Of a stretch of DNA of 18,212 bases, positions 1,015 through 18,212 are shown piece after piece. Both the position numbers and the translations under genes were made by a program. Location: IMG/VR virus record IMGVR_UViG_2617271087_000009. One strand, 5' to 3'. The stretch's first letter is position 1, and each line of letters begins with the position of its first letter. Under the pieces are notes generated by a model. That model did no database searches and had not been told where the DNA came from. It was given only the letters and a program-made list of their open reading frames with translations. The DNA comes from a virus (lineage: Duplodnaviria > Heunggongvirae > Uroviricota > Caudoviricetes).

Positions 1015-1069
1015 CAGAAAACCCTCCGAGTGGTACTTTTTTTTTGCTACTACTAATCGCTTTTTTCGT

Positions 1070-1090
1070 GGTGGCTGAAATTTAGCCACC
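1070..1090. other. Perfect 7-bp stem / 7-nt loop hairpin (GGTGGCT-GAAATTT-AGCCACC) in the C-int intergenic region
   Basis: Inverted repeat read directly. No U-tract follows on either strand, so not a canonical intrinsic terminator; possibly a protein-binding or int-regulatory element. Confidence 0.3.
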
Positions 1091-1130
1091 AATAGTAGGC
1101 ACTTGTGATGAATATATTCACGATAAATTG

Positions 1131-1430: not shown

Positions 1431-1551
1431 AATTACTCCGATTGCGTAATTTCTTGCTGATAGTGTGAAATGTTGTGCTTCTGGAGTTATCCTTTTAGGC
1501 AATAATTAGCCATTAGGAGCCATTAGAAGCACTAAGGGAGAATCGTAGCAG
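1431..1551. promoter_or_regulatory. Lysis/lysogeny switch region (Pe/Pc promoters and operators expected); direct repeats AGCCATTAG at 1508-1516 and 1518-1526
   Basis: Intergenic region between divergent C and cox. In P2/186 the face-to-face promoters and repressor operators lie here. The two 9-bp direct repeats are read directly; I could not place -10/-35 elements confidently. Confidence 0.4.
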
Positions 1552-1827
1552 ATGAATAGACAGCTTGTAAGCGTGACTGATGCCGTGCCTTATCAGGAGT
1601 TTGCAAAACTCATTGGTAAAACTCCAAGAGCTGTAAGGGGCATGATTGAGAAAGGGAAATTACCAGTTATTGAGATTACTGACCCTCAGTCAGTATCGGG
1701 GCGTGCTGGTGAATATTGGGTATACCTTCCGGCATGGAATAACGGACTAAAACTGGCTTATGAAAGCCGTCCTAAAGAGATTCGTGACGGCTGGTTGATG
1801 TGGTTAGGTCTCGGTGAACCACGTTAA
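1552..1827 (+). CDS. cox: Cox (excisionase / early-promoter repressor), 91 aa
   Basis: 91-aa ORF, same length as P2 Cox; sequence AVPYQEFAKLIGK...GRAGEYWVYLPAWNNGLKLAYESRPKEIRDGWLMWLGLGEPR matches P2 Cox from memory. Confidence 0.9.
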   Translation: MNRQLVSVTDAVPYQEFAKLIGKTPRAVRGMIEKGKLPVIEITDPQSVSGRAGEYWVYLPAWNNGLKLAYESRPKEIRDGWLMWLGLGEPR

Positions 1828-1837
1828 GGAGAACCGT

Positions 1838-2008
1838 ATGAATGAGCCTCGTTGTATTGCTCAGTTATTGCGTAACGAAAGCCCCAGGGCGATTGACTTC
1901 ACCATCACCCACGGTAAGGGGCGTAAGGGAATCATTATCCGCACCAAAAAACAGAGTCCGTTAAAAAAGGCTCTGACCTTTCTGAAAAGCCGGAGGGTCT
2001 GGAAATGA
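1838..2008 (+). CDS. Small early hypothetical protein (P2 orf78 position)
   Basis: ATG at 1838 preceded by AAGGAG at 1826-1831; stop overlaps the B start (ATGA at 2005-2008). The ORF track's 1814 start is a GTG with no better RBS. Confidence 0.5.
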   Translation: MNEPRCIAQLLRNESPRAIDFTITHGKGRKGIIIRTKKQSPLKKALTFLKSRRVWK

Positions 2009-2505
2009 CAGTGATGACGCTCAATCTCGTTGAAAAACAGCCAGCAGCTATGCGCCGGATAATTGGTAAGCATCTGGCCGTCCCTCGCTGGCAGGAGACA
2101 TGCGATTATTATAATCAGATGATGGAACGCGAACGGCTAACGGTTTGCTTCCATGCGCAGTTAAAACAGCGTCACGCAACGATGCGTTTTGAAGAAATGA
2201 ACGACGTCGAACGTGAACGGCTGGTTTGTGCAATTGATGAACTGCGTGGGGCATTCTCAAAACGCCGTCAGGTCGGTGCAAGTGAGTATGCATATATTAG
2301 CTTTTTAACTGTCAGTCAGCGCCGTACTTTATTTATGCATGCCGGATTGACTGAAAAAGAATTCAACCAGCCATACTGGCGAATTAATGAAGAATCATGT
2401 TACTGGCGTGATGCCTTATTCCGTGCATTACGTGAATTATTCAGCCTGTTTGAGTATGCACCGACAATTCTGACGTCGGTAAAACCAGAGCAATATCTGC
2501 ATTAA
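2005..2505 (+). CDS. B: Replication protein B (166 aa)
   Basis: 166-aa ORF equal to P2 gpB length, in the conserved position after cox/orf78; start overlaps the upstream stop. Confidence 0.85.
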   Translation: MTVMTLNLVEKQPAAMRRIIGKHLAVPRWQETCDYYNQMMERERLTVCFHAQLKQRHATMRFEEMNDVERERLVCAIDELRGAFSKRRQVGASEYAYISFLTVSQRRTLFMHAGLTEKEFNQPYWRINEESCYWRDALFRALRELFSLFEYAPTILTSVKPEQYLH

Positions 2506-2568
2506 GTAATTAACCAGAGTTTTTAACGCACTTAATTGTGCGGGGCTTCTTTTTGCCTGGAGAAAGTC

Positions 2569-2793
2569 ATGCATACAGTTTCTGAAAATCAGTGCGGTAA
2601 ATACGCATTACTGCTGCAACAGGCCAGAACCGAAGCACAGGCCGACGCAGCGACGCGCTTTTCTTCTCATCTTGACGCCATGATTCGCCACATCACAAAG
2701 GCGGAGTTATCCCGCGTGGAGATAGTCGAGCTGCTCAGTCAGGAGTCGGAAAAATTTCACAATATCGGATTGTCTCGCGGGGAGGTGCTTTGA
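2569..2793 (+). CDS. Small early hypothetical protein (P2 orf80 position)
   Basis: ATG at 2569 with GGAGAAAG RBS at 2559-2566; the track's 2536 start is GTG. Stop overlaps the next start (TGATG at 2791-2795). Confidence 0.6.
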
Positions 2794-3095
2794 TGTCCTG
2801 TTCTCGTTCAGTTGTATTACTGAATAACGCCTTAAAAATCGCCGTTATGAAAAATGGCGATTTATCTCTTATTCAACTTGGTCTTGATAAAGAAAAACGC
2901 GAAATAACTGAGTCTGTTATCGCGATTTATCAGAACGAATTAAATCTCCTGTCTGATGTGGTCAATTTACTTGTTAAACGCGCTGTATTTCACAAGCAAA
3001 TCTCCTCCGTGGATGAACTGACGAAATTAACGACAGAAATTGCCAGCTATTGCGCTGATGAATTTAAAAAACTTAACGACAAAAGGAGCTGGTAA
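2793..3095 (+). CDS. Small early hypothetical protein (P2 orf81 position)
   Basis: ATG at 2793 with GGGGAGGTG RBS; translationally coupled to both neighbours (TGATG upstream, TAATG downstream). Confidence 0.6.
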   Translation: MSCSRSVVLLNNALKIAVMKNGDLSLIQLGLDKEKREITESVIAIYQNELNLLSDVVNLLVKRAVFHKQISSVDELTKLTTEIASYCADEFKKLNDKRSW

Positions 3096-3319
3096 TGCCG
3101 GACAACGTAGATTTTATTCAGGAACAACAGGCTGAATTACTGGAGCGCCAGATTAACGCGGCAAGGGTAAAGCATTGCGGTGTTTCTGCGCTGGTTTGCG
3201 AAGAGTGTGACGCGCCAATACCTGCTGCCCGTCGTGCGGCTTATCCGTCAGCCACGCGTTGTGTTTCCTGCCAGTCAGTCTTTGAAGCAAAAAACAAACA
3301 TTACCGGAGAACGGCATGA
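3095..3319 (+). CDS. TraR/DksA-type C4 zinc-finger protein (P2 orf82-like)
   Basis: 74 aa with C-x2-C ... C-x2-C (CEEC...CVSC), the four-cysteine arrangement of TraR/DksA-family phage proteins; AAAAGGAG RBS at 3081-3088. Confidence 0.75.
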   Translation: MPDNVDFIQEQQAELLERQINAARVKHCGVSALVCEECDAPIPAARRAAYPSATRCVSCQSVFEAKNKHYRRTA

Positions 3320-3597
3320 GTATTCGTATTGAAATTGGCGAGCGTTATGTCGTCACAAATGACCGTTTTCAGTTCATTTTGCAGGAGAGAAAGACCGCTG
3401 AAACCGGGAAGAATGCCGGTAAAGAGTGGCTGGATGTTGTCGGCTATTACCCCAAATTAAACCAGCTCGTTTCCGGTCTGATCCATCACGATATTTTGAG
3501 CGGTAACGCTGTCTCTTTTGAGGCGCTGAGCTCTCAGGTTGAGCAGCTCGGTCAGCAGTGTCTGACTGCGTTTCTCTGTGCGGGGAAATCTAAATGA
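3316..3597 (+). CDS. Small early hypothetical protein (P2 orf83 position)
   Basis: 93-aa ORF; ATG at 3316 overlaps the upstream stop (ATGA); GGAGA RBS at 3306-3310. Confidence 0.6.
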   Translation: MSIRIEIGERYVVTNDRFQFILQERKTAETGKNAGKEWLDVVGYYPKLNQLVSGLIHHDILSGNAVSFEALSSQVEQLGQQCLTAFLCAGKSK

Positions 3598-4602
3598 TAG
3601 TTGATACCCGCTGCCGAGCTGAAAGCTCTATCAATATTATTTCTGTTTCTGGCGGAAAGGATAGCCTTGCTCAATGGCTTGTTGGTATTGAAAGCGGTGT
3701 GCATTTTTTTGCCGGTTTTTGCAGACACCGGGCATGAGCATCCGCAGACAATGGAGTATCTCGATTATCTGGAGAACCGACTCGGGCCGGTTAAACGGGT
3801 TAAAGCTGACTTCTCCCGACAGATTGAAGGTAAGCGCAAGTTTATTGCTGAGAAATGGCCTGTTTCTCTGGTTGAAGAGTGCGGAATGTCTCCGGGGGAA
3901 GCGGCAGAGCGCATCAATTGTGCGCTGGAAATTCTCAAGCCTACTGGTATCCCATTTCTTGATTTGTGCATGTGGAAAGGGCGATTTCCTTCCACTAAAG
4001 CCAGATTTTGCACTTTTGACCTTAAACATGAGCCAGTACGTACTCAGGTCGTGTTACCTGCGCTTAATGAGTTTGATGAGGTAATTAGCTGGCAGGGGAT
4101 TCGCGCTCAGGAGTCTCCTGCGCGCGCGGGTCTGCCTGCCTGGGAAGAGGATGCGGACAATACGCCCGGGCTCCATGTATACCGTCCTATTCTGAACTGG
4201 ACGCATGAGGAGGTATTTGCATTTGCAAGACGTCATGGAATTAAACCTAATCCGTTATACCAGCAGGGATGCAGTCGTGTCGGTTGTATGCCCTGCATCC
4301 ACGCCAGAAAGTCTGAATTAGCTGAAATTTTTAGTCGCTGGCCGGAAGAGGTTAAGCGTGTTGCGGAATGGGAGCGACTTGTCGCCGCATGCTCCAGACG
4401 CGGAAATTCTACTTTCTTCCCGTCAACTCATGACCCGCGTCGTGCGGAACGCCGCATTGATATTATTACTGTCGATGCTTACGGAATTGAGTCTTATCGT
4501 GACTGGGCGATGACCACGCGTGGCGGGGCACAGTTTGATTTGCTGGCTTCGGTGAATGATAAGTCAGTTTGCAGTAGTGTCTATGCCGGTGTATGTGAAT
4601 GA
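3594..4602 (+). pseudogene. PAPS reductase / DndC-like PP-loop protein with Cys cluster, interrupted by a +1 frameshift in a T7 run (3704-3710); possibly a sequencing error
   Basis: Frame 0 from ATG 3594 (overlapping the orf83 stop) encodes MIVDTRCRAESSINIISVSGGKDSLAQWLVGIESGVHFF and stops at 3735-3737. Frame +1 continues FLPVFADTGHEHPQTMEY... to 4602. SGGKDS followed about 25 residues later by DTG...P.T is the PAPS-reductase family signature, but here it is split across frames. Removing one T from the T7 run restores one ORF of about 335 aa. C-terminal GCSRVGCMPC cysteine cluster. Confidence 0.7.
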
Positions 4603-6884
4603 GTCATTCTTTCCAGGAGCAATACACCTGCGTACCTCCGTCAGCATTTGCTGCAGGCACCGGTAAGGCGTTTACCGGTGCTTATGCATGGAACGCGCCA
4701 CGCGAGGCCGTCGGGCGCGAAAGACCCCTTACACGTGACGAGATGCGTCAGGTGCAAGGTGTTTTATCCACGATTAACCGCCTGCCTTACTTTTTGCGCT
4801 CGCTGTTTACTTCACGCTATGACTACATCCGGCGCAATAAAAGCCCGGTGCACGGGTTTTATTTCCTCACATCTACTTTTCAGCGTCGTTTATGGCCGCG
4901 CATTGAGCGCGTGAATCAGCGCCATGAAATGAACACCGACGCGTCGTTGCTATTTCTGGCAGAGCGTGACCACTATGCGCGCCTGCCTGGAATGAATGAC
5001 AAGGAGCTGAAAAAGTTTGCCGCCCGTATCTCATCGCAGCTTTTCATGATGTATGAGGAACTCTGCGATGCATGGGTTGATGCACATGGCGAAAAAGAAT
5101 CGCTGTTTACGGATGAGGCGCAGACTCACCTGTATGGTCATGTTGCTGGCGCTGCACGTGCTTTCAATATTTCCCCGCTCTACTGGAAAAAATACCGTAA
5201 AGGACAGATAACCACGAGGCAGGCATATTCTGCCATTGCCCGTCTGTTTAACGATGAGTGGTGGACTCATCAGCTTAAAGGCCAGCGTATGCGCTGGCAT
5301 GAGGCGTTACTGATTGCTGTCGGGGAGGTCAATAAAGACCGTTCTCCTTATGCCAGTAAACATGCCATTCGTGATGTGCGTGCGCGCCGCCAGGCAAATC
5401 TGGAGTTTCTTAAATCGTGTGACCTTGAAAACAGGGAAACCGGCGAACGCATCGACCTTATCAGTAAGGTGATGGGCAGTATTTCTAATCCTGAAATTCG
5501 CCGGATGGAGCTGATGAACACCATTGCCGGTATTGAGCGTTACGCCGCCGCAGAGGGTGATGTGGGGATGTTTATCACGCTGACCGCGCCGTCAAAGTAT
5601 CACCCGACACGTCAGGTCGGAAAAGGCGAAAGTAAAACCGTTCAGCTTAATCACGGCTGGAACGATGAGGCATTTAATCCAAAGGATGCGCAGCGTTATC
5701 TCTGCCGTATCTGGAGCCTGATGCGCACGGCATTCAAGGATAATGATTTACAGGTCTACGGTTTGCGAGTCGTCGAGCCACACCACGACGGAACGCCGCA
5801 CTGGCATATGATGCTTTTTTGTAATCCACGCCAGCGTAACCAGATTATTGAAATCATGCGTCGCTACGCGCTCAAAGAGGATGGCGACGAAAGAGGAGCT
5901 GCGCGAAACCGTTTTCAGGCAAAACACCTTAACCGGGGCGGTGCTGCAGGGTATATCGCGAAATACATCTCAAAAAACATCGATGGCTATGCACTGGATG
6001 GTCAGCTCGATAACGATACCGGCAGGCCGCTGAAAGACACTGCCGCGGCTGTTACCGCATGGGCGTCAACGTGGCGCATTCCGCAATTTAAAACGGTTGG
6101 CCTGCCGACAATGGGGGCTTACCGTGAACTACGCAAATTGCCTCGCGGCGTCAGCATTGCTGATGAGTTTGACGAGCGCGTCGAGGCTGCACGCGCCGCT
6201 GCAGACAGTGGTGATTTTGCGTTGTATATCAGCGCGCAGGGCGGGGCAAATGTCCCGCGCGATTGTCAGACTGTCAGGGTCGCCCGTAGCCCGTCGGATG
6301 ACGTTAACGAGTACGAGGAAGAAGTCGAGAGAGTGGTCGGCATTTACGCGCCGCATCTCGGCGCGCGTCATATTCATATCACCAGAACGACGGACTGGCG
6401 CATTGTTCCGAAAGTGCCGGTCGTTGAGCCTTTGACTTTAAAAAGCGGCATCGCCGCGCCTCGGAGTCCTGTCAATAACTGTGGAAAGCTCACCGGTGGT
6501 GATACTTCGTTACCGGCTCCCACACCTTCTGAGCACGCCGCAGCAGTGCTTAATCTGGTAGATGACGGTGTTATCGAATGGAATGACCCGGAGGTCGTGA
6601 GGGCGCTCAGAGGTGCATTAAAACACGGCCTGAGAAGACCAAACCGTCAGCAAAGAAACGGAAGCCCGTTAAAACCGCATGAAATAGCGCCATCGGCCAG
6701 ACTGACCCGGTCTGAACGATTGCAAATCACCCGTATCCGCGTTGACCTTGCTCAGAACGGTATCAGGCCGCAGCGATGGGAGCTTGAGGCGCTGGCGCGT
6801 GGCGCGACCGTAAATTATGACGGGAAAAAATTCACGTATCCGGTCGCTGATGAGTGGTCGGGATTCTGGCATCAATTTGAGTAA
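4599..6884 (+). CDS. A: Replication initiation protein A (rolling-circle HUH endonuclease), 761 aa
   Basis: 761 aa equals P2 gpA length; HUH-like motif (GTPHWHMMLF) and tyrosine-containing active-site region (GYIAKYISKNIDGY); start overlaps the upstream stop (ATGA). Confidence 0.9.
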   Translation: MSHSFQEQYTCVPPSAFAAGTGKAFTGAYAWNAPREAVGRERPLTRDEMRQVQGVLSTINRLPYFLRSLFTSRYDYIRRNKSPVHGFYFLTSTFQRRLWPRIERVNQRHEMNTDASLLFLAERDHYARLPGMNDKELKKFAARISSQLFMMYEELCDAWVDAHGEKESLFTDEAQTHLYGHVAGAARAFNISPLYWKKYRKGQITTRQAYSAIARLFNDEWWTHQLKGQRMRWHEALLIAVGEVNKDRSPYASKHAIRDVRARRQANLEFLKSCDLENRETGERIDLISKVMGSISNPEIRRMELMNTIAGIERYAAAEGDVGMFITLTAPSKYHPTRQVGKGESKTVQLNHGWNDEAFNPKDAQRYLCRIWSLMRTAFKDNDLQVYGLRVVEPHHDGTPHWHMMLFCNPRQRNQIIEIMRRYALKEDGDERGAARNRFQAKHLNRGGAAGYIAKYISKNIDGYALDGQLDNDTGRPLKDTAAAVTAWASTWRIPQFKTVGLPTMGAYRELRKLPRGVSIADEFDERVEAARAAADSGDFALYISAQGGANVPRDCQTVRVARSPSDDVNEYEEEVERVVGIYAPHLGARHIHITRTTDWRIVPKVPVVEPLTLKSGIAAPRSPVNNCGKLTGGDTSLPAPTPSEHAAAVLNLVDDGVIEWNDPEVVRALRGALKHGLRRPNRQQRNGSPLKPHEIAPSARLTRSERLQITRIRVDLAQNGIRPQRWELEALARGATVNYDGKKFTYPVADEWSGFWHQFE
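6456..6475 (+). other. Candidate origin / A-protein nick region inside the A coding sequence
   Basis: GCGCCTCGGAGTCCTGTCAA matches my recollection of the P2 ori sequence, which is known to lie within the 3' part of gene A. Recall-based, not computed. Confidence 0.4.
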
Positions 6885-6973
6885 GGATCTCATCTATACA
6901 GTATAAGTAGTTTTGACTGTAATTGATTGTTTTTTATATGGTTGCATGCATTAAATCTACGTCAATATCATTA

Positions 6974-6982
6974 TGTTATAAT
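6974..6982 (+). promoter_or_regulatory. Extended -10 promoter element (TGtTATAAT) upstream of the cargo operon
   Basis: TG-n-TATAAT read directly at 6974-6982, about 29 nt upstream of the ATG at 7011 with GGAGA RBS at 7001-7005; AT-rich context; no good -35. Confidence 0.45.
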
Positions 6983-7010
6983 GCATTACTTAAAAATGTT
7001 GGAGATAAAA

Positions 7011-7202
7011 ATGTTAAAGCCTGCAGATGTTGTTTGTTTGAAAAGCGGTGGATTTAAAATGACTGTATCTGACTCTACTGAAACTCATGCTAAATGTATT
7101 TGGCATGATAAAGAAGGAGTTTTGCACGAGGAGTCATTCTCCATTGATTTACTGGAAATAGCAGAGAGTAAAAGTGGTATGCTTTGTCGTCCACGTAAGT
7201 GA
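7011..7202 (+). CDS. Small protein (63 aa), YodC/DUF2158-like, first gene of the cargo island
   Basis: ATG at 7011 with GGAGA RBS. The pattern V.LKSGG.KMTV ... C.W.D ... F recalls the DUF2158 (YodC) small-protein family, from memory only. AT-rich codon usage unlike the flanking phage genes. Confidence 0.6.
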   Translation: MLKPADVVCLKSGGFKMTVSDSTETHAKCIWHDKEGVLHEESFSIDLLEIAESKSGMLCRPRK

Positions 7203-7229
7203 ATCATAATAAAATTCACGGGGGAAAGT

Positions 7230-7910
7230 ATGAAACAATACAGCGAATTAGAAAACAATGTTAAGAGATTCATTGTTGAGCATGAAAAAGGGATTTCTAT
7301 TGATGATATTCATCATAAGTTCCGGATGAAGGATGGTCAGAATCGCAAGATGGCAGATTATCTTATTGATAATAAAAAGATAATTTTGGAGATGAAAAGT
7401 CTTTTTTCTGACAGGGTCAAGAATGTCAATGATAAACTGAATGAGTTGGTTAAAACTGATAATTGGCTTGCAAAAAACTGGCATGGTGCTATTCATTTAG
7501 AAGAGTTGATAAAAAGACACCCAGACTCAAAGCGATTTAGAAATGATATAATGAACTTTGCTTATGAAAATATTAAAACAAAGATAGTTAAGGAAGCTAA
7601 TAAGCAAATAAATGCAACAAAGGATGTTTTGGATTTAAATGACTCGATTGGCGGGTTGATTTTGTTAAATGATAATGTCTTTTCACATGAGTCTAATTAT
7701 TTGTCAGATGAAATATTATATTTGCTAGGCACAAAGAGATATTCGAGTGTTGAGTTTGTGGTTTATATTGCAAAATTGATTGATAAACAGGTTGATGTTT
7801 GTGTGCTACTTGACAGTCAATCTAAAAATAAAAATTATATTGAATGGTATATGAATAATGTTTTTTTATTGAACTGGGCGTCTTTTAATAAATATGCAAT
7901 AAAGATGTAG
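7230..7910 (+). CDS. Hypothetical protein (226 aa), cargo gene of unknown function
   Basis: ATG at 7230 with GGGGGAAAG RBS, 27 nt after the upstream stop, so probably co-transcribed. K/N/E-rich, AT-rich; no motif I recognise, no predicted transmembrane segment. Confidence 0.7.
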   Translation: MKQYSELENNVKRFIVEHEKGISIDDIHHKFRMKDGQNRKMADYLIDNKKIILEMKSLFSDRVKNVNDKLNELVKTDNWLAKNWHGAIHLEELIKRHPDSKRFRNDIMNFAYENIKTKIVKEANKQINATKDVLDLNDSIGGLILLNDNVFSHESNYLSDEILYLLGTKRYSSVEFVVYIAKLIDKQVDVCVLLDSQSKNKNYIEWYMNNVFLLNWASFNKYAIKM

Positions 7911-8163
7911 TGGTGTGGATGGATATGAAATGAGTCAACCAAGATGCACCTTGGTCAGTAATCTCATGTGAGATACCACATATAACACCAAAAGTGTCAG
8001 GTTGATGGCCATTGTTCACCGTTTACAGCAGATTATGGTCAACGAAAATCTGACGCCTGACGAGCTGGTCGGGTGTGCCGAAATAGTCTGGGATAATTAC
8101 GGGCGGTTTAACTATATCGGTCAGTCCAGAGTTGCGCCACCACCACGCAGACGATAGAGAACG

Positions 8164-8197
8164 CCGCCAGTCGTGAAACTTGTTTTCAGGCTGGCGG
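8164..8197 (-). terminator. Possible weak intrinsic terminator for the 313-aa cargo gene
   Basis: CCGCCAG ... CTGGCGG 7-bp GC-rich stem with a long structured loop, about 33 nt downstream of the minus-strand stop, followed on the minus strand by CGUUCUCUAUCG (only moderately U-rich). Confidence 0.3.
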
Positions 8198-8229
8198 AGT
8201 TGAACAACGAGCGAAGTGAGGCGTTAGCA

Positions 8230-9171
8230 TTAAGTTAATTTTAATGAATGGTACTCTATCGAGCTGATTGTAGATGCGATATATTTACGATCATTTACAG
8301 AGAGTATTGCCGCTAGTAGACGACATACCAGAGCCTGCATTTGTAGCAATATATCGCTACCATATTGACAATCATTGATACTAGAGAAACCAAGCGGTTG
8401 CCCATTAAAAATGGCTTCATGAAAATTATCATTGCGTATAACTGAAACATTACATTCATCTGTTGCCCATGACGGGATTTTTACACCGTAATTTTCGCAC
8501 ATCCAATATACTCTATTTTGATGAGATGGTTTTTTCTCTTTAATGACTTTATCCCTTTCATCCCATGCTATAGCAAAACAGCAATCAAGAGCCATATAAA
8601 GATACTGGAATTTCTCAAAGGAAAGGTATAGTGGGTTATGTGACAGGAATAGGGAGTGTATCACCGCAGCTATTCTTTTAATGGAGCGATCATCTTTTTG
8701 TTTGTCTTTTATATAGTTAAGTGCTAGCTCTATTACTTCTTTTTCAGAGCATCCAACGAGAATAAAGTCGGTTAACTTAGTGGGCTTGATAGTGGTTGCA
8801 TCAAGAAAACCAGCGTCAGTGGTTGTCAATCTTATACCCTTGAAAAAAGAGAGGCACCACACAACAAAGTTGAGAGTTTCTAACGAGGATGTGTTTTTTA
8901 ATTTTAGTGTGTGCGTTTTGGGCATGCCGAATACTCGGTAACTATAAGGCATTGTGCATGTGTCACCATTAAGGTTATATACCTTTCGATTCCCAGGGTA
9001 TATCCAACCATTAACAACGTTTTTATCATTGTTAATACGTTCCACGTTCTCAATAAGACCGGGTAAAGTACGCAAAGAAAATTGTTCAGTCTCAATGTTA
9101 ACTTCTACTGGATAGTATCCAAACTCCGAAATAATCTCATTTGGTTGCTGTTCGTCAACTTCACCTTGCAT
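8230..9171 (-). CDS. Hypothetical protein (313 aa), cargo gene of unknown function
   Basis: ATG (reverse complement of 9169-9171) preceded by GGAGAAAG RBS; convergent with the 7011-7910 operon; AT-rich. It contains an R-x4-H motif (RNDNFH, residues about 246-251) reminiscent of HEPN Rx4-6H, which is weak evidence. Confidence 0.7.
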   Translation of the reverse strand: MQGEVDEQQPNEIISEFGYYPVEVNIETEQFSLRTLPGLIENVERINNDKNVVNGWIYPGNRKVYNLNGDTCTMPYSYRVFGMPKTHTLKLKNTSSLETLNFVVWCLSFFKGIRLTTTDAGFLDATTIKPTKLTDFILVGCSEKEVIELALNYIKDKQKDDRSIKRIAAVIHSLFLSHNPLYLSFEKFQYLYMALDCCFAIAWDERDKVIKEKKPSHQNRVYWMCENYGVKIPSWATDECNVSVIRNDNFHEAIFNGQPLGFSSINDCQYGSDILLQMQALVCRLLAAILSVNDRKYIASTISSIEYHSLKLT

Positions 9172-9409
9172 AACTTTCTCCGTTCAAAAACAGGCACGAT
9201 AATTCTCGTAAGCCTATCATGTTCGCAAAGTATCCATACCTGTGGATTTTGTAAATTTAAGTTGATTTGTCATTAAATAAGCCGTTGCATGCAACAAGTG
9301 AATGTTTTTGCATGCGTCGGGGATGTCCGTTCAGGCTGCGTGCGGTCAGGACTGGTGCGGATCCATAGTATCTATGCAACTGCATTAAAACCGCCCCATG
9401 AAGCGGGCG

Positions 9410-9428
9410 GGCGAGGCGGGGAAAGCAC
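9410..9428. other. cos: cos site (19-nt cohesive-end sequence GGCGAGGCGGGGAAAGCAC)
   Basis: Exact match to my recollection of the P2/P4 19-nt cohesive end, in the expected position downstream of Q and adjacent to the tin/old-equivalent locus. Confidence 0.55.
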
Positions 9429-9562
9429 TGCGCGCTGGCGGTGGTGCTGATTTTATTTTTTCAGCGTCTCAGCGCGTCGTGATGGCATTTAGTCGGCCTG
9501 CTGGGGCGTTGGTGTGTCTGCGGGGTGTTTTGTGCGGTGGTGAGGGCGTGATGACGGGATGT

Positions 9563-9584
9563 AAAAAAGCCGCCCGCAGGCGGC
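9563..9584 (-). terminator. Rho-independent terminator after Q
   Basis: Minus strand reads GCCGCC-UGCG-GGCGGC followed by UUUUUU, starting 5 nt after the Q stop codon. Confidence 0.65.
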
Positions 9585-9589
9585 GATGT

Positions 9590-10624
9590 TCAGCCGTTGT
9601 CAGTGTCAAGTGAGTAGTTTTTAAAGCGGATGACCTCCTGACCGAGCCAGTCGTTTATCTCGCGGATCCTGTCCTGTAACGGGATAAGCTCATTGCGGAC
9701 AAAGACCTTTGCCACTTTCTCAATATCACCCAGCGACCCGACGTTCTCCGGCTTGCCACCCATCAACTGAAAGGGGATGCGGTGCGCGTCCAGCAGGTCA
9801 GCGGCGCTGGCTTTTTTGATATTAAAAAAATCGTCCTTCGTCGCCACTTCACTGAGGGGGATAATTTTAATGCCGTCGGCTTTCCCCTGTGGGGCATAGA
9901 GAAACAGATTTTTAAAGTTATTGCGGCCTTTCGACTTCACCATGTTTTCGCGAAGCATTTCGATATCGTTGCGATCCTGCACGGCATCGGTGACGTACAT
10001 GATGTATCCAGCATGTGCGCCATTTTCGTAATACTTGCGGCGGAACAGCGTGGCCGACTCATTCAGCCAGGCAGAGTTAAGGGCGCTGAGATATTCCGGC
10101 AGGCCGTACAGCTCCTGATTAATATCCGGCTCCAGCAGGTGAAACACGGAGCCGGACGCGAAGGCTGTCGGCTCGTTGAAGGACGGCACCCACCAGTAAA
10201 CATCCTCCTCCACGCCACGGCGGGTATATTTTGCCGGTGAGGTTTCCAGCCTGATAACCTTACCGGTGGTGCTGTAACGCTTTTCCAGAAACGCATTACC
10301 GAACACCAGAAAATCCAGCACAAAGCGGCTGAAATCCTGCTGGGAAAGCCACGGGTGCGGAATAAACGTTGAAGCCAGAATATTACGTTTGACGTAAATC
10401 GGTGAGCTGTGATGTACGGCAGCACGCAGGCTTTTTGCCAGACCGGTAAAGCTGACCGGTGGCTCATACCATCTGCCGTTACTGATGCACTCGACGTAAT
10501 CCAGAATGTCACGGCGGTCGAGTACCGGCACCGGCTCACCAAAGGTGAATGCCTCCATTTTCGGGGCGCTGGCGGTCATTGTTTTCACCGCAGGTTGCGG
10601 TGTTTTCCCTTTTTTCTTGCTCAT
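9590..10624 (-). CDS. Q: Portal protein Q (344 aa)
   Basis: 344 aa equals P2 gpQ length; start ATG overlaps the P stop (ATGA); adjacent to terminase. Confidence 0.9.
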   Translation of the reverse strand: MSKKKGKTPQPAVKTMTASAPKMEAFTFGEPVPVLDRRDILDYVECISNGRWYEPPVSFTGLAKSLRAAVHHSSPIYVKRNILASTFIPHPWLSQQDFSRFVLDFLVFGNAFLEKRYSTTGKVIRLETSPAKYTRRGVEEDVYWWVPSFNEPTAFASGSVFHLLEPDINQELYGLPEYLSALNSAWLNESATLFRRKYYENGAHAGYIMYVTDAVQDRNDIEMLRENMVKSKGRNNFKNLFLYAPQGKADGIKIIPLSEVATKDDFFNIKKASAADLLDAHRIPFQLMGGKPENVGSLGDIEKVAKVFVRNELIPLQDRIREINDWLGQEVIRFKNYSLDTDNG

Positions 10625-12395
10625 CAGTAAAACTCCAGAATGGTGGATGTCAGCGGGGTGCTGATACCGGCGGTGAGTGGCTCATTTAACAGGGCGTGCA
10701 TGGTCGCCCAGGCGAGGTCGGCGTGGCTGGCTTCCTCGCTGCGACTGGCCTCATAGGTGGCGCTGCGTCCGCTGCTGGTCATGGTCTTGCGGATAGCCAT
10801 AAACGAGCTGGTGATGTCGGTGGCGCTGACGTCATATTCCAGACAGCCACGGCGGATAACGTCTTTTGCCTTGAGCACCATTGCGGTTTTCATTTCCGGT
10901 GTGTAGCGGATATCGCGCGCGGCGGGATAGAACGAGCGCACGAGCTGGAACACGCCGACACCGAGGCCGGTGGCATCAATACCGATGTATTCGACGTTAT
11001 ATTTTTCGGTGAGTTTGCGGATGGATTCAGCCTGGGTGGCAAAGTCCATGCCTTTCCACTGGTGACGCTCAAGTATCCTGAATTTGCCACCGGCCACCAC
11101 CGGCGGTGCCAGCACCACGCATCCGGCGCTGTCGCCACGGTGTGACGGGTCGTAACCAATCCATACCGGGCGGGAGCCGAACGGATTGGCGGCAAACGGT
11201 GCATAGTCTTCCCATTCTTCCAGCGTGTCGACCATGCAGCGTTGCAGCTCCTCGAACGGGAACACCGATGCCTTGTCGTCAACAAATTCACACATGAACA
11301 GGTTTTTAAAATCGTCGGCGCTGTTTTCGCGTTTGAGCTGCTCAATGTCGAACAGTGTGCAGCCACCTTTCAGGGCGTCCTCAATGGTGACAATCTGCCG
11401 CCACTGGCCGTCCGCACAGAGAAGCCCACCGGCAAGGGCGTTATGACTGACGTCGATTTCCACACGTTCGGCGGCGCTGGCGCGTCCCCGGTTGAACAGT
11501 TCACCCGACCAGAACGGGTAGCGTCGTGCGCCAGTGTGGACGGGGTGGAGAAATAGGTCGAGCGCAGGTGACTCTGTGAGGCCATACCTGATGCCACCTT
11601 ACGCAGAACCTGAAAATTTGGGATCCAGAAAATCTCGTCGACGTACAGGTCACCGTTATGGCTCTGTGCGGTGTTGGAGTTGGTGCCGAGAAAAATCAGT
11701 TTTGCGCCGTTATTGCCCAGGACAATCGGGTCACCGGTCAGGTCAACGTCAACCAGACGGGCAAAGGCGATGATGTATTCACGGAACACATACGCCTGCG
11801 TTTTACTGGCCGACAGAAAAATCTGGTTATGACCGGTTTTCAGGGCGCGCAGCAGCGCCTCGCGGGAAAAATAAAATGTCGCGCCAATCTGGCGGGATTT
11901 CAGGATATCGCGGATGCGGTGCTCAAGCCCGGCGCGATACCAGTGCAACTGATAGTCGAAAGACTGCTCAAAGAAAATCTGCTCCAGCTTTTCGATAGCC
12001 TCGTCACTGAAAAAATTCTTTTTCGGTTTGCGCCGCCCGCCTTTGTTGCGGTTAGCGACGTTCGGATTAAGGTCTGCCTCGTTGCCGGTCTGGCTGTAGC
12101 GGTTTACCCGTGCCAGTCGTTCAATCTGGCGTCCGAGCAGGTCAATTTCCTTGAAGTCACCGCCGGTTTTCTGCGGTTTGATAATGAGCTGGGTCAGCCG
12201 CGCTTCCAGACTCATTTCGACACGGCTGATGGGGGCAACGCTGTCCCAGCCGTCGCGCTGTTTCCAGCTCTGCACCGTCGGGCGTTTCATCTGCAACATG
12301 GCGGCAATCTGCGGCACGGAAAACCCCTGCCAGTACAGCAGCGCCGCCTGACGACGCGGGTCGTGTAAAAGAGTGGTGTCTGTGGTGATGGTCAT
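10624..12395 (-). pseudogene. P: Terminase large (ATPase) subunit P, split by an apparent 1-nt deletion near 11515-11530; possibly a sequencing error
   Basis: N-terminal part from ATG 12393-12395 (MTITTDTTLLHDPRR...) runs in one frame to a stop at 11370. The C-terminal part (…YPFWSGELFNRGRASAAERVEIDVSHNALAGG…) is in another frame that is open from 11598 to the stop at 10624-10626. The coding span is 1769 nt, one short of the 1770 needed for the 590-aa P2 gpP. Sensible protein sequence switches frames at about AHDA|YPFW. Confidence 0.8.
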
Positions 12396-12568
12396 GAATA
12401 CCTCGCCGTGATGAATACACGGCAAGGCTACTGAGTCGCGCCCCGCGATTCGCTAAGGTGCTGTTGTGTCAGTGATAAGCCATCCGGGACTGATGGCGGA
12501 GGATGCGCATCGTCGGGAAACTGATGCCGACATGTGACTCCTCTAATCACTATTCAGGACTCCTGACA
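12396..12568. promoter_or_regulatory. Divergent late-promoter region (P_P leftward, P_O rightward), expected Ogr-dependent
   Basis: Intergenic region between divergent P and O, as in P2. A TGT-N12-CAC element (12533-12550) partly resembles the TGT-N12-ACA late-promoter upstream motif. Not resolved further. Confidence 0.35.
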
Positions 12569-13423
12569 ATGGCAAAAAAAGTCTCAAAATTCTTTCGTAT
12601 CGGCGTTGAGGGTGACACCTGTGACGGGCGTGTCATCAGTGCGCAGGATATTCAGGAAATGGCCGAAACCTTTGACCCGCGAGTCTATGGTTGCCGCATT
12701 AACCTGGAACATCTGCGCGGCATCCTGCCTGACGGTATTTTTAAGCGTTATGGCGATGTGGTCGAACTGAAGGCCGAAAAGATTGACGATGATTCGGCGC
12801 TGAAAGGCAAATGGGCGCTGTTTGCGAAAATCACCCCGACCGATGACCTTATCGCGATGAACAAGGCCGCGCAGAAGGTCTACACCTCAATGGAAATTCA
12901 GCCGAACTTTGCCAACACCGGCAAATGTTATCTGGTGGGGCTGGCCGTCACCGATGACCCGGCAAGCCTCGGCACGGAATACCTGGAATTCTGCCGCACG
13001 GCAAAACACAACCCTCTGAACCGCTTCAAATTAAGCCCTGAAAACCTGATTTCAGTGGCAACGCCCGTTGAGCTGGAATTTGAAGACCTGCCTGAAACCG
13101 TGTTCACCGCCCTGACCGAAAAGGTGAAATCCATTTTTGGCCGCAAACAGGCCAGCGATGACGCCCGTCTGAATGACGTGCATGAAGCGGTGACCGCTGT
13201 TGCTGAACATGTGCAGGAAAAACTGAGCGCCACTGAGCAGCGCCTCGCTGAGATGGAAACCGCCTTTTCCGCACTTAAGCAGGCGGTGACTGACAGGGCG
13301 GATGAAACCAGCCAGGCATTCACCCGCCTGAAAAACAGTCTCGACCACACCGAAAGTCTGACCCAGCAGCGCCGCAGCAAGGCCACCGGTGGTGGCGGTG
13401 ACGGCCTGATGACGAACTGCTGA
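12569..13423 (+). CDS. O: Capsid scaffold protein O (284 aa)
   Basis: Internal ATG at 12569 (MAKKVSKFFRIGVEGDTCDGRV...) gives 284 aa, the P2 gpO length; coiled-coil-like C-terminus. Confidence 0.9.
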   Translation: MAKKVSKFFRIGVEGDTCDGRVISAQDIQEMAETFDPRVYGCRINLEHLRGILPDGIFKRYGDVVELKAEKIDDDSALKGKWALFAKITPTDDLIAMNKAAQKVYTSMEIQPNFANTGKCYLVGLAVTDDPASLGTEYLEFCRTAKHNPLNRFKLSPENLISVATPVELEFEDLPETVFTALTEKVKSIFGRKQASDDARLNDVHEAVTAVAEHVQEKLSATEQRLAEMETAFSALKQAVTDRADETSQAFTRLKNSLDHTESLTQQRRSKATGGGGDGLMTNC

Positions 13424-13481
13424 CCGGCGTCAGTCAGTCCGGGAAAACCTTCACGATTAACCCTTAATTTCAGGAAAAACT

Positions 13482-14555
13482 ATGCGCCAGGAAACCCGCT
13501 TTAAATTTAATGCTTACCTGTCCCGTGTTGCCGAACTGAACGGCATTGATGCCGGTGATGTGTCGAAAAAATTCACTGTTGAACCGTCGGTCACCCAGAC
13601 CCTGATGAACACCATGCAGGAGTCCTCTGACTTTCTGACCCGCATCAACATTGTGCCGGTCAGCGAAATGAAAGGGGAAAAAATTGGTATTGGTGTCACC
13701 GGCTCCATCGCCAGCACCACCGACACCGCCGGTGGCACCGAGCGTCAGCCGAAGGACTTCTCGAAGCTGGCGTCAAACAAGTACGAATGCGACCAGATTA
13801 ACTTCGATTTTTATATCCGCTACAAAACGCTGGACCTGTGGGCGCGTTATCAGGATTTCCAGCTCCGTATCCGTAACGCCATTATCAAACGCCAGTCCCT
13901 TGATTTCATCATGGCCGGTTTTAACGGCGTGAAGCGTGCCGAAACCTCTGACCGCAGCAGCAATCCGATGCTGCAGGATGTGGCGGTCGGCTGGCTGCAG
14001 AAATACCGCAATGAAGCCCCGGCTCGCGTGATGAGCAAGGTCACTGACGAGGAAGGCAGCACCACCTCTGAGGTCATCCGCGTGGGTAAGGGCGGTGATT
14101 ATGCCAGCCTCGATGCACTGGTGATGGATGCGACCAACAACCTGATTGAGCCGTGGTATCAGGAAGACCCTGACCTTGTGGTGATTGTGGGGCGTCAGCT
14201 ACTGGCGGACAAGTATTTCCCCATCGTCAACAGGGAGCAGGATAACAGCGAAATGCTGGCTGCTGACGTCATCATCAGCCAGAAACGCATCGGTAACCTG
14301 CCAGCGGTACGCGTCCCGTACTTCCCGGCGGATGCGATGCTCATCACGAAGCTGGAAAACCTGTCTATCTACTACATGGATGACAGCCATCGCCGCGTGA
14401 TTGTGGAAAACCCGAAACTCGACCGCGTGGAGAACTACGAGTCAATGAACATTGATTACGTGGTGGAAGACTACGCCGCCGGTTGTCTGGTGGAAAAAAT
14501 CAAGGTCGGTGATTTCTCCACACCGGCTAAGGCGACCGCAGAGCCGGGAGCGTAA
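13482..14555 (+). CDS. N: Major capsid protein N (357 aa)
   Basis: 357 aa equals P2 gpN length; conserved position after O. Confidence 0.9.
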   Translation: MRQETRFKFNAYLSRVAELNGIDAGDVSKKFTVEPSVTQTLMNTMQESSDFLTRINIVPVSEMKGEKIGIGVTGSIASTTDTAGGTERQPKDFSKLASNKYECDQINFDFYIRYKTLDLWARYQDFQLRIRNAIIKRQSLDFIMAGFNGVKRAETSDRSSNPMLQDVAVGWLQKYRNEAPARVMSKVTDEEGSTTSEVIRVGKGGDYASLDALVMDATNNLIEPWYQEDPDLVVIVGRQLLADKYFPIVNREQDNSEMLAADVIISQKRIGNLPAVRVPYFPADAMLITKLENLSIYYMDDSHRRVIVENPKLDRVENYESMNIDYVVEDYAAGCLVEKIKVGDFSTPAKATAEPGA

Positions 14556-14558
14556 CCG

Positions 14559-15302
14559 ATGACGAGTCCCGCACAGCGCCACATGATGCGGGTCTCGGCA
14601 GCGATGACCGCGCAGCGGGAAGCCGCCCCGCTGCGACATGCAACTGTCTATGAGCAGATGCTGGTCAAGCTGGCCGCAGACCAGCGCACACTGAAAGCGA
14701 TTTATTCAAAAGAGCTTAAGGCCGCGAAAAAGCGCGAACTGCTGCCGTTCTGGTTGCCGTGGGTGAACGGTGTGCTGGAGCAGGGCAAAGGTGCACAGGA
14801 TGACATTCTGATGACGGTCATGCTGTGGCGTCTGGATACCGGCGATATTGCCGGTGCGCTGGAGATTGCCCGTTATGCCCTGAAGTACGGTCTGACCATG
14901 CCGGGTAAACACCGCCGCACCCCGCCGTACATGTTCACCGAGGAGGTCGCACTCGCGGCCATGCGTGCCCACGCTGCCGGTGAATCTGTGGATATCCGCC
15001 TGCTGACGGAGACCCTTGAACTGACCGCCACGGCTGACATGCCTGATGAAGTGCGCGCAAAGCTGCACAAAATCACCGGTCTGTTTCTGCGTGACGCTGG
15101 TGATGCCGCCGGTGCGCTGGCTCACCTGCAACGTGCGACACAGCTCGACTGTCAGGCAGGCGTCAAAAAAGAGATTGAACGACTGGAGCGGGAGCTGAAA
15201 CCGAAGCCGGAGCCGCAGCCCAAAGCGGTCACCCGCGCCCCGCGTAAGACCCGGAGCGTGACACCGGCAAAACGTGGACGCCCGAAAAAGAAAGCCAGTT
15301 AA
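14559..15302 (+). CDS. M: Terminase small (endonuclease) subunit M (247 aa)
   Basis: 247 aa equals P2 gpM length; basic C-terminal tail (RKTRSVTPAKRGRPKKKAS). Confidence 0.9.
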   Translation: MTSPAQRHMMRVSAAMTAQREAAPLRHATVYEQMLVKLAADQRTLKAIYSKELKAAKKRELLPFWLPWVNGVLEQGKGAQDDILMTVMLWRLDTGDIAGALEIARYALKYGLTMPGKHRRTPPYMFTEEVALAAMRAHAAGESVDIRLLTETLELTATADMPDEVRAKLHKITGLFLRDAGDAAGALAHLQRATQLDCQAGVKKEIERLERELKPKPEPQPKAVTRAPRKTRSVTPAKRGRPKKKAS

Positions 15303-15401
15303 CAACCGAATGCGCCCCGCGCCAGGGCGGCACGCCGGTCAGTGAGGGTGAATCACCTGACACTGCACCGGCGTCCACCGCCCGACTTTTCAGAGGTAGT
15401 C

Positions 15402-15911
15402 ATGATGACGCTGATTATTCCGCGAAAGGAGGCTCCCGTGTCCGGTGAGGGTACGGTGGTCATCCCGCAACCGGCAGGCGACGAGCCGGTGATTAAAAAC
15501 ACGTTCTTTTTTCCCGATATCGACCCGAAGCGCGTCCGGGAACGTATGCGCCTTGAGCAGACCGTCGCCCCCGCCCGTCTGCGTGAGGCCATCAAGTCAG
15601 GCATGGCGGAGACGAATGCGGAGCTGTACGAGTACCGCGAACAGAAAATTGCCGCCGGTTTTACGCGTCTGGCGGACGTTCCGGCGGACGACATCGACGG
15701 TGAAAGCATCAAAGTTTTTTACTACGAGCGCGCCGTGTGTGCGATGGCGACCGCGTCGCTTTATGAGCGTTATCGCGGCGTGGATGCCAGTGCGAAAGGC
15801 GACAAGAAGGCCGACAGCATTGACAGCACCATTGATGAACTGTGGCGGGATATGCGCTGGGCGGTGGCGCGTATCCAGGACAAGCCGCGCTGCATCGTGA
15901 GTCAAATCTGA
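15402..15911 (+). CDS. L: Capsid completion protein L (169 aa)
   Basis: ATG at 15402 (MMTLIIPRKEAP...) gives 169 aa, the P2 gpL length; AGAGG RBS at 15392-15396. Confidence 0.85.
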   Translation: MMTLIIPRKEAPVSGEGTVVIPQPAGDEPVIKNTFFFPDIDPKRVRERMRLEQTVAPARLREAIKSGMAETNAELYEYREQKIAAGFTRLADVPADDIDGESIKVFYYERAVCAMATASLYERYRGVDASAKGDKKADSIDSTIDELWRDMRWAVARIQDKPRCIVSQI

Positions 15912-16114
15912 TGAAGACCTTTGCGCTACAGGGTGACACGCTCGACGCCATTTGTGTCCGGTATTACGGGCGCACTGAGGGCGTGGTTGAGACCGTGCTC
16001 GCCGCAAATCCGGGACTGGCTGAACTGGGTGCGGTGCTGCCACACGGCACCGCCGTCGAACTGCCCGACGTTCAGACCGCGCCCGTGGCTGAAACTGTCA
16101 ATCTGTGGGAGTAA
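15911..16114 (+). CDS. X: Tail protein X (67 aa)
   Basis: MKTFALQGDTLDAICVRYYGRTEGVVETVLAANPGL... is 67 aa, the P2 gpX length; start overlaps the L stop (TGATGA). Confidence 0.85.
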   Translation: MKTFALQGDTLDAICVRYYGRTEGVVETVLAANPGLAELGAVLPHGTAVELPDVQTAPVAETVNLWE

Positions 16115-16117
16115 CGC

Positions 16118-16411
16118 ATGACAGCAGAAGAAAAAAGCGTCCTGTCGCTTTTCATGATTGGGGTGCTGATTGTTGTCGGCAAGGTGCTTGCCGGTGGTGA
16201 ACCCATCACCCCGCGTCTGTTTATCGGGCGCATGTTGCTCGGCGGTTTTGTCTCGATGGTTGCCGGTGTTGTTCTGGTGCAGTTTCCTGACCTGTCACTG
16301 CCTGCGGTGTGCGGCATCGGTTCCATGCTGGGTATCGCCGGTTATCAGGTGATTGAGATTGCCATTCAGCGCCGCTTTAAGGCAGGGGGAAACCGTAATG
16401 CCGGTAATTAA
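16118..16411 (+). CDS. Y: Holin Y
   Basis: 97-aa hydrophobic protein with transmembrane-like stretches (LSLFMIGVLIVVGKVLAGG; FVSMVAGVVLVQF) and a charged C-terminus; GGGAG RBS; first gene of the lysis cassette. Confidence 0.85.
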   Translation: MTAEEKSVLSLFMIGVLIVVGKVLAGGEPITPRLFIGRMLLGGFVSMVAGVVLVQFPDLSLPAVCGIGSMLGIAGYQVIEIAIQRRFKAGGNRNAGN

Positions 16412-16895
16412 CACGCATCAGAATATCGCCGCCTTTCTCGACATGCTGGCCGTGTCCGAAGGGACGGCGAATCATCCGCTGACGAAAAACCGGGGCTATG
16501 ACGTGATAGTCACCGGACTGGACGGAAAGCCGGAAATTTTCACCGACTACAGTGACCACCCGTTCGCGCATGGCCGACCGGCGAAGGTGTTTAACCGTCG
16601 CGGTGAAAAATCCACGGCCTCCGGTCGCTATCAGCAGCTTTACCTGTTCTGGCCGCACTACCGCAAACAGCTTGCCCTGCCGGATTTCAGTCCGTTGTCA
16701 CAGGACAGGCTCGCCATTCAGTTGATCCGCGAACGCGGTGCACTGGATGACATCCGGGCGGGACGCATTGAGCGCGCCATTTCACGCTGTCGCAATATCT
16801 GGGCGTCCCTGCCGGGTGCCGGTTACGGTCAGCGTGAGCATTCACTGGAAAAACTGGTCACCGTCTGGCGTACCGCCGGCGGCGTACCGGCTTAA
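16398..16895 (+). CDS. K: Endolysin K (165 aa)
   Basis: ATG at 16398 (MPVINTHQNIAAFLDMLAVSEGT...) gives 165 aa, the P2 gpK length; AGGGGGA RBS; overlaps the Y 3' end. Confidence 0.85.
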   Translation: MPVINTHQNIAAFLDMLAVSEGTANHPLTKNRGYDVIVTGLDGKPEIFTDYSDHPFAHGRPAKVFNRRGEKSTASGRYQQLYLFWPHYRKQLALPDFSPLSQDRLAIQLIRERGALDDIRAGRIERAISRCRNIWASLPGAGYGQREHSLEKLVTVWRTAGGVPA

Positions 16896-16909
16896 ACGGA
16901 GTAAACACC

Positions 16910-17335
16910 ATGAAGAAATTATCCCTTTCACTGATGCTGAACGTGTCGCTGGCGCTGATGCTGGCACTGTCCCTGATTTACCCGCAGAGCGTGGCCGTCA
17001 GTTTTGTCGCCACCTGGGCGATTCTGGCGACGGTTATCTGTGTGGTTGCCGGTGGTGTCGGCGTGTATGCCACGGAGTATGTGCTGGAACGCTACGGGCG
17101 GGAGCTGCCGCCGGAATCGCTGGCCGTGAAGATTGTCACGTCGCTGTTTTTGCAGCCGGTGCCGTGGCGCAGACGGGCGGCGGCTCTGGTGGTGATGGTG
17201 GCGACGTTTATCTCGCTGGTCGCTGCCGGGTGGATTTTTACTGCGCTGATTTACCTCGTGGCGTCGGTGTTCTTCCGGCTGATACGTACGGCCTGCCGTC
17301 AGCGTTTTGAGGGGCGGGAACCATGTCAAAGCTGA
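16910..17335 (+). CDS. lysA: LysA (141 aa), membrane protein modulating lysis timing
   Basis: 141-aa multi-TM hydrophobic protein in the P2 lysA position; GGAG RBS. Confidence 0.8.
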   Translation: MKKLSLSLMLNVSLALMLALSLIYPQSVAVSFVATWAILATVICVVAGGVGVYATEYVLERYGRELPPESLAVKIVTSLFLQPVPWRRRAAALVVMVATFISLVAAGWIFTALIYLVASVFFRLIRTACRQRFEGREPCQS

Positions 17336-17748
17336 TGATTGTACTGGTTGTGTTGTTATCGCTGGCGGTGGCGGGGCTGTTTCTGGTGAAACATAAAAAT
17401 GCCAGCCTGCGCGCCTCGCTGGACAGGGCGAACAACGTCGCCAGCGGGCAGCAGACGACTATCACCATGCTGAAAAATCAGCTTCATGTTGCCCTCACCA
17501 GAGCAGACAAAAACGAGCTGGCGCAGGTGGTACTGCGTCAGGAACTGGAGAACGCCGCGAAGCGTGAAGCACAGCGCGAGAAAACCATCACGAGGTTACT
17601 CAATGAAAACGAAGATTTTCGCCGCTGGTACGGCGCTGACCTGCCTGATGTTGTGCGCCGGTTGCACCAGCGTCCGGCCTGCACCGACGCCAGTGATTGT
17701 CGCCAACGCCTGCCCGAAAGTGAGCCTTTGCCCGATGCCGGGCAGTGA
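17323..17748 (+). CDS. lysB: LysB (141 aa), Rz-like i-spanin
   Basis: N-terminal TM segment (MIVLVVLLSLAVAGLFLV) followed by a charged helical periplasmic domain; overlaps the lysA 3' end. Confidence 0.8.
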   Translation: MSKLMIVLVVLLSLAVAGLFLVKHKNASLRASLDRANNVASGQQTTITMLKNQLHVALTRADKNELAQVVLRQELENAAKREAQREKTITRLLNENEDFRRWYGADLPDVVRRLHQRPACTDASDCRQRLPESEPLPDAGQ

Positions 17749-17875
17749 CCCGCAGACGAACGGCGATTTAAGTGCTGATATCCGGCAGCTTGAGAACGCG
17801 CTGGCACGCTGTGCCAGCCAGGTAAAAATGATTAAACACTGTCAGGACGAAAACGATGCTTGCGTATTACCGTGA
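17603..17875 (+). CDS. lysC: LysC (90 aa), Rz1-like o-spanin lipoprotein, overlapping lysB in the +1 frame
   Basis: ATG at 17603 with GAGGT RBS; signal peptide plus lipobox (LMLCAGC); Pro-rich mature region; begins inside lysB and extends past it. Confidence 0.7.
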   Translation: MKTKIFAAGTALTCLMLCAGCTSVRPAPTPVIVANACPKVSLCPMPGSDPQTNGDLSADIRQLENALARCASQVKMIKHCQDENDACVLP

Positions 17876-18212
17876 AGGAGATCGGTGAGTAACATCGATG
17901 GAGATCGGTTCGTGTCACTTTCACAGAACCGTTTTTAAATTACCTTCACTGATCTCCTTCGGTCAACGGAGATTGTATTTTCCGCATTGATTCTCCTTTA
18001 AGTTCGATCTTGATACTGCCATGAACCAGTCGATCTAGGATGGCATCCGCATGTGTGGAGTCTCCGATCATTTTGTACCAGTTTTCCACCGGCAACTGGC
18101 TCACTACGATGATTGAGCCTCGTTGGTACATCAGATCCACTATTTCCAGCAGGTCGCTACGCTGTTCTGATGAGAGAGGTTCCAGCCCCCAGTCATCCAG
18201 AAGCAGCAGATC
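17876..18212 (-). mobile_element. IS21-family insertion sequence, right end; continues beyond the window
   Basis: Contains the istB 3' end. The 70 bp between the lysC stop and the istB stop carries repeated motifs (GGAGATCGGT at 17877-17886 and 17900-17909, and an inverted GGAGATCAG copy at about 17947-17958), typical of multi-repeat IS21 termini. The exact boundary is not determined. Confidence 0.65.
17946..18212 (-). CDS. istB: IstB (IS21-family transposition helper ATPase), C-terminal part; N-terminus off-window
   Basis: Minus-strand translation from the window edge: DLLLLDDWGLEPLSSEQRSDLLEIVDLMYQRGSIIVVSQLPVENWYKMIGDSTHADAILDRLVHGSIKIELKGESMRK... This carries the Walker B (hhhhDD) region and conserved C-terminus of IstB. 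The track's 64-aa ORF is only the tail. Confidence 0.8.
   Translation of the reverse strand, partial: DLLLLDDWGLEPLSSEQRSDLLEIVDLMYQRGSIIVVSQLPVENWYKMIGDSTHADAILDRLVHGSIKIELKGESMRKIQSPLTEGDQ

Follow-up and report, generated by a model that had tools for sequence, protein, structure and literature searches.

The large terminase subunit gene P of a Peduovirus (P2-family) prophage in Escherichia coli IS29 is split between two reading frames by the loss of a single base, and we consider a consensus base-calling or assembly error in the draft genome to be the most likely cause (probability about 0.6). The window analysed here is an 18,212-nucleotide stretch of DNA that forms the end of contig CBWH010000002.1 in the draft assembly GCA_000529975.1, with position 1 of the window corresponding to position 302660 of the record. 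The assembly is a 2013-14 draft of an ST131-like chromosome. The locus in CBWH010000002.1 is identical to the window, so the gap is present in the public record itself. The features discussed below are listed in Table 1.

Table 1. Features of the IS29 prophage window and sites at which it differs from sister prophage copies (window coordinates).
Feature	Position	Strand	Remarks
Indel, T8 to T9 (+T)	1037..1045		C-int intergenic region, about 23 nt upstream of the start of minus-strand int
Substitution, A/G	7462		Ser to Asn in the 226-aa protein; the only private substitution of the window
Gene Q (portal), intact	9590..10624	-	Start overlaps P stop by 1 nt (TGATG)
Gene P (gpP, large terminase subunit), P2-family prophage	10624..12395	-	Assigned by nucleotide identity to P2-like phages and by Pfam
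P second frame (-1), stop at 10624	10624..11598	-	Holds Tyr293 to Tyr590
P N-terminal frame, ATG at 12395, stop at 11370	11370..12395	-	341 aa
Missing-base site	11520..11521		Plus strand GTAGGCG to GTAGCG; coding strand GCC (Ala292) to GC
Gene O (scaffold/protease), intact	12569..13423	+	Divergent from P
Single-base deletion, GGG to GG	16380..16381	+	Last codons of the holin gene; relative to the four reference copies
ISEc12 (IS21-family) right end, 3' end of istB	17857..18212	-	Contig ends inside the IS

Gene P is 98.1-98.6% identical at the nucleotide level to the best 25 of 119 matching phage records, among them phage 899, L-413C and P2. The P2-type synteny around it is kept: Q and P are read leftward with their one-nucleotide overlap, and the genes O-N-M-L-X-holin-lysozyme-lysA-lysB-lysC are divergent from them. 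An earlier reading made from the sequence alone (hereafter the sequence-only reading) had described P as running in one frame from its start to a stop at 11370, with its continuation open in another frame from 11598 to 10624, the whole being one nucleotide short of a gene for a 590-aa protein. Translation and comparison with reference genes confirm both frames, and the length is 1772 nt here against 1773 nt in the same best 25 phage records. The switch between frames, which had been placed at 11515-11530, falls within that interval: alignment to P2, L-413C and phage 899 puts the gap at 11520/11521, where GAC-GCC-TAC (Asp291-Ala292-Tyr293) has become GAC-GC-TAC with the loss of one C. The lesion is a change in the length of a base run, CC to C on the coding strand and GG to G on the plus strand, and the run is only two bases long, which agrees with the observation that no long homopolymer is present.

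Both halves of P are 100% identical in nucleotide sequence to P of E. coli 4/0, which is intact, the single gap being the sole difference in 1772 nt, and the two-frame pattern therefore did not arise by chance. Once repaired, the 590-aa gpP has no residue differences from the TerL protein of phage 899 and one from P2 gpP. Since the gene is otherwise identical to an intact copy and the repaired protein differs from those of phages by at most one residue, there is no sign of relaxed selection on P.

Comparison with the reference shows that residues 1-292 of the 341-aa frame are genuine gpP, while residues 293-341 are 49 out-of-frame codons. The frame contains the motifs SRQIGAT (at residue 167), LYVDE (at 250) and STPS (at 283), which we take to be Walker A, Walker B and motif III, respectively, by analogy with T4 gp17. 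The -1 frame runs from 11598 to 10624 without a stop, and its last 298 residues match the Tyr293 to Tyr590 portion of reference gpP, which includes the last part of the ATPase domain as well as the RNaseH-like nuclease. Among the deposited proteins of Escherichia coli IS29, the 341-aa product is CDK86047.1 and a 213-aa product, corresponding to the 3' part of the -1 frame, is CDK86046.1. Pfam analysis of an intact homologue identifies Terminase_5 at residues 12-69, Terminase_6N (the ATPase) at 164-386 and Terminase_6C (the RNaseH-like nuclease) at 413-571. In the window, Terminase_5 (PF06056, a gpP-like HTH) is found in the N-terminal fragment at residues 12-69 (E=1.5e-27). Terminase_6N (PF03237), which is unbroken in the 4/0 copy (profile positions 2-215, E=5.6e-60), is divided between profile positions 2-142 in the N-terminal fragment and 142-215 in the other frame. 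Terminase_6C (PF17289, E=1.2e-47) is fused to the ATPase in the reference and occurs here only in the -1 frame. The ATPase domain is thus broken at profile position 142 of 215, just past the SRQIGAT, LYVDE and STPS motifs. By analogy with T4 gp17-type terminases, a break just past motif III would presumably abolish both translocation and cutting. The sequence-only reading had named P as a disrupted terminase, and the interrupted ATPase domain and out-of-frame nuclease bear this out: judged by its predicted products, the DNA as deposited cannot encode a working terminase.

The two frames overlap from 11598 to 11370, and a -1 shift anywhere in this overlap would yield a full-length product. A joining of the frames in vivo, whether by programmed -1 ribosomal frameshifting, by transcriptional slippage or as a split terminase, is effectively refuted and is the least probable of all the explanations considered. 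No in-frame X_XXY_YYZ heptamer occurs in the overlap, where the longest runs are C4 and G4. Each of the 1588 matches in complete genomes, like the best 25 phage records, has P as a single-frame gene, and the break lies within the ATPase fold. Programmed frameshifting is rejected and slippage is not credible, there being neither a slippery site nor a conserved two-frame layout.

A search of 153 billion indexed gene positions places the exact 341-aa and 213-aa fragments on the IS29 contig alone. A 50-mer across the gap gave no match in 5426 complete E. coli genomes, in which the corresponding 51-mer with the extra base, serving as a positive control, matched at 1588 places in 1399 genomes. The gap allele was likewise absent from 50,697 phage records, from IMG/VR (beyond the IS29 window) and from the GTDB representative genomes, and the proteins private to IS29 were carried by none of the Logan assemblies. 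An error copied from a reference genome used to guide the assembly is unlikely, since the fragment is encoded on none of the other indexed contigs. The sole other carrier of the gap is OQEB01001833, a 7.6 kb human gut metagenome contig (ENA) of 1.13x coverage that belongs to a different P2-like lineage. Its identity is 98.6%, and over 7.5 kb its alignment to the reference opens 22 gaps, of which many fall at base runs and several within the portal and terminase genes. OQEB01001833 is plainly error-ridden, and it shows only that the site of the P gap can suffer sequencing error. The contig also serves as an example of the noise in some public metagenome contigs.

The IS29 prophage is integrated downstream of gsiD, at the gsiD-pdeI site, and its attL junction contains a P2-like att core ending AAGGGAGATT. 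In eight complete ST131 genomes, including that of 4/0, the same prophage (99.98% identical) lies at yegR, and the gsiD site of these genomes is empty. A P2-like prophage occupies gsiD in only one complete genome, that of strain 203740. We considered whether the gsiD/int junction might be a chimeric contig and rejected this, as a P2-like prophage is integrated there in strain 203740 too and the junction has the att core ending AAGGGAGATT. The occupation of different sites by a near-identical prophage implies recent phage mobility between sites or strains.

Four complete ST131 genomes, those of 4/0 (Sweden), Ecol_656 and 736 (Puerto Rico) and NR1441 (Japan), carry prophages that are mutually 100% identical over a segment of 17,861 nt. 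Positions 1-17860 of the window differ from these four copies at four sites: one is a substitution and three are single-base indels, each at a base run (in the C-int intergenic region, in P and in the holin gene). In E. coli, indels make up roughly 10% of spontaneous point mutations, a figure obtained in mutation-accumulation studies. Taking that proportion, the probability of at least three indels among four events is about 0.004. The adjoining gsiBCD flank, 2688 nt of the same contig, shows no differences from ST131 strain 4/0; at the indel rate observed in the prophage, none would be expected with a probability of about 64%. Private one-base indels are also present in other assemblies of this prophage, where PGAP labels the affected genes as 'frameshifted' pseudogenes: that for tail protein X in Esc31, and that for a DUF5405 protein in 1442. 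The two indels of 1442 lie in runs of five, and the indel of Esc31, like the P gap, lies outside any long run. Private one-base frameshifts are a common assembly signature for this prophage.

The deletion in the holin gene (16118-16411) alters the last six codons, giving a protein of 97 aa instead of 93 aa. An identical 97-aa holin is encoded in a P2-like lineage with about 97.5% identity, on at least 24 further contigs from Logan and NCBI drafts. In this lineage, the nearest distinguishing SNPs lie 60-70 nt from the GG allele on either side, and the window contains no linked SNPs. A 50-mer of the GG allele, searched without a separate positive control, was not found in the complete genomes. 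The GG allele was examined as evidence that the indels are real and was set aside: with a source lineage 97.5% identical and no linked SNPs in the window, it decides neither way. It also bears on the idea that a second, related P2-like prophage corrupted the consensus, either through collapsed-repeat misassembly or through a short gene-conversion tract. Some ST131 genomes do contain two P2-like P genes, and the holin allele is known in a lineage whose nearest SNPs would lie 60-70 nt away. Against this, none of the collections searched contains a donor of the P gap, and the three indels come without the accompanying SNPs expected of a paralogue, leaving this origin extremely improbable. Even taken together, all explanations besides consensus error and real mutation are very improbable.

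The single private substitution lies in a cargo slot (6927-9590, minus strand) between replication gene A and portal gene Q, which encodes a 63-aa DUF2158 protein and proteins of 226 aa and 313 aa. The latter two have no Pfam or PADLOC match. In related prophages, the A-Q slot contains SIR2, AAA_13, HATPase and methylase genes, and its position is that of a known P2 defence-gene hotspot. Elsewhere in the window, in a PAPS-reductase-family gene (3593-4602), the SGGKDS and FADTGHE motifs are separated by a frameshift at a T7 run; this is presumably the frameshift mentioned in the sequence-only reading as the T7 case. The same frameshift is annotated in six near-identical complete-genome copies (those whose annotation was read). 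Being common to these six sister copies, it is inherited and not private.

At the other end of the window, where IS sequence begins at 17857/17861, ISEc12 sits within the first 5 nt of the tail-completion gene R, and the 3' end of lysC is cut off. The ISEc12 junction was found in none of the complete E. coli genomes, and IS29 alone encodes the LysC-IS fusion protein. Because an IS21-family element is inserted at the start of an essential tail gene, the prophage is, on its predicted gene products, defective independently of P. The suggestion that the P frameshift may have rendered the prophage cryptic thus stands only in part: the terminase is unworkable as written, but the status of the prophage does not depend on P. 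With R interrupted, the recovery of infectious particles is no usable test of the P lesion. To our knowledge, P2-type prophages are not inducible by the SOS response or mitomycin.

We therefore favour a consensus error as the origin of the P gap on several grounds. Among deposited records, the lesion is private to that of IS29; the ratio of three indels to one substitution reverses the spontaneous spectrum; P is otherwise identical in nucleotide sequence to an intact gene; private indels of the same kind are seen in the Esc31 and 1442 assemblies; and the only other carrier of the gap is an error-ridden contig of 1.13x coverage. From these observations we infer that the base was lost in sequencing and not in the cell. 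In such a scenario, the two-base run would have been undercalled in an indel-prone draft, and the true gene would encode an intact 590-aa terminase identical to those of E. coli 4/0 and Escherichia phage 899. The sequence-only reading had fairly named an assembly error as the alternative to its own interpretation. Its argument that the shortness of the run favours a real mutation does not hold, given three private indels against one substitution and the occurrence of the same deletion in the error-ridden metagenome contig. A literature search for papers on IS29, CBWH01 or GCA_000529975, or for the sequencing platform, found none.

A real and very recent loss-of-function mutation is the second most likely explanation, though we think it somewhat less likely than not. 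The C would then have been lost in IS29 or its immediate ancestor after integration at gsiD-pdeI. The 341-aa fragment would retain Walker A, Walker B and motif III but lack the rest of the ATPase and the whole nuclease, so that DNA would be neither cut nor packaged, and the prophage would be in decay, with gene R interrupted by an IS, the holin tail shifted and P broken. The gap is, after all, what the deposited sequence contains. A two-base run is not a classic homopolymer error site and would be an unusual place for a consensus error, and the 2.7 kb of chromosomal flank is free of errors, so the indels are not shown to be genome-wide. ISEc12 in R/lysC is already a genuine lesion that disrupts the prophage, so a further lesion in P would be selectively neutral. 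The holin GG allele occurs naturally in another P2-like lineage, and not every indel need be an artefact. Broken copies of P are, moreover, common in E. coli: distinct gpP fragments, N-terminal as well as C-terminal, number in the hundreds in protein clusters, and a C-terminal one of 203 aa is found on 128 contigs. However, the IS29 gap recurs in no second isolate, genome or read-derived (Logan) assembly, three indels to one substitution is a proportion far removed from that of spontaneous mutation, and no further change has accumulated across 1772 nt. The identical copies in four independent complete genomes indicate that this prophage normally undergoes no change on such a timescale. Stronger still would be the proposal that the P frameshift, the altered holin tail and the IS in R/lysC are all real and reflect rapid, selected inactivation (domestication) of the prophage soon after its integration at gsiD-pdeI, as a secondary att site, in an ST131 strain; we consider this quite unlikely.

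Whichever origin is correct, the P gap is ordinary: it is a one-off lesion in a well-known gene. As an artefact, it would be one more frameshift error in an old draft and would give no ground for calling the prophage cryptic. As a real mutation, it would be a one-off null allele of a familiar gene, in a prophage that an IS had already inactivated, and hence routine prophage decay. For annotation, the lesson is that, where a mobile element is otherwise identical to its sister copies, comparison with those copies should come before any biological reading of a private one-base indel.

The closest well-known counterpart of the IS29 gene is that for gpP of bacteriophage P2 (Peduovirus), with 98.3% nucleotide identity and, after repair to 590 aa, a single differing residue. 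The two share the same Terminase_5, Terminase_6N and Terminase_6C architecture and the same Q-P and O-N-M-L synteny. Unlike the P2 gene, the IS29 sequence lacks one base in codon 292 and encodes two fragments. The repaired protein is 100% identical to TerL of phage 899 (PV533660) and to WP_000156861.1, the gpP of 4/0, Ecol_656, 736 and NR1441. The prophages of these four strains lie at yegR and are intact through gene R, whereas the IS29 copy lies at gsiD-pdeI, has ISEc12 in R and contains three single-base indels. The frameshifts in Esc31 and 1442 resemble the P gap in being one-base indels restricted to a single assembly of an otherwise identical prophage, but they affect different genes. 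More distantly, the T4 gp17-type terminases belong to the same two-domain fold family, combining an ATPase with an RNaseH-like nuclease (Pfam Terminase_6N/6C). gpP is remote from them in sequence and has an additional N-terminal HTH domain (Terminase_5).
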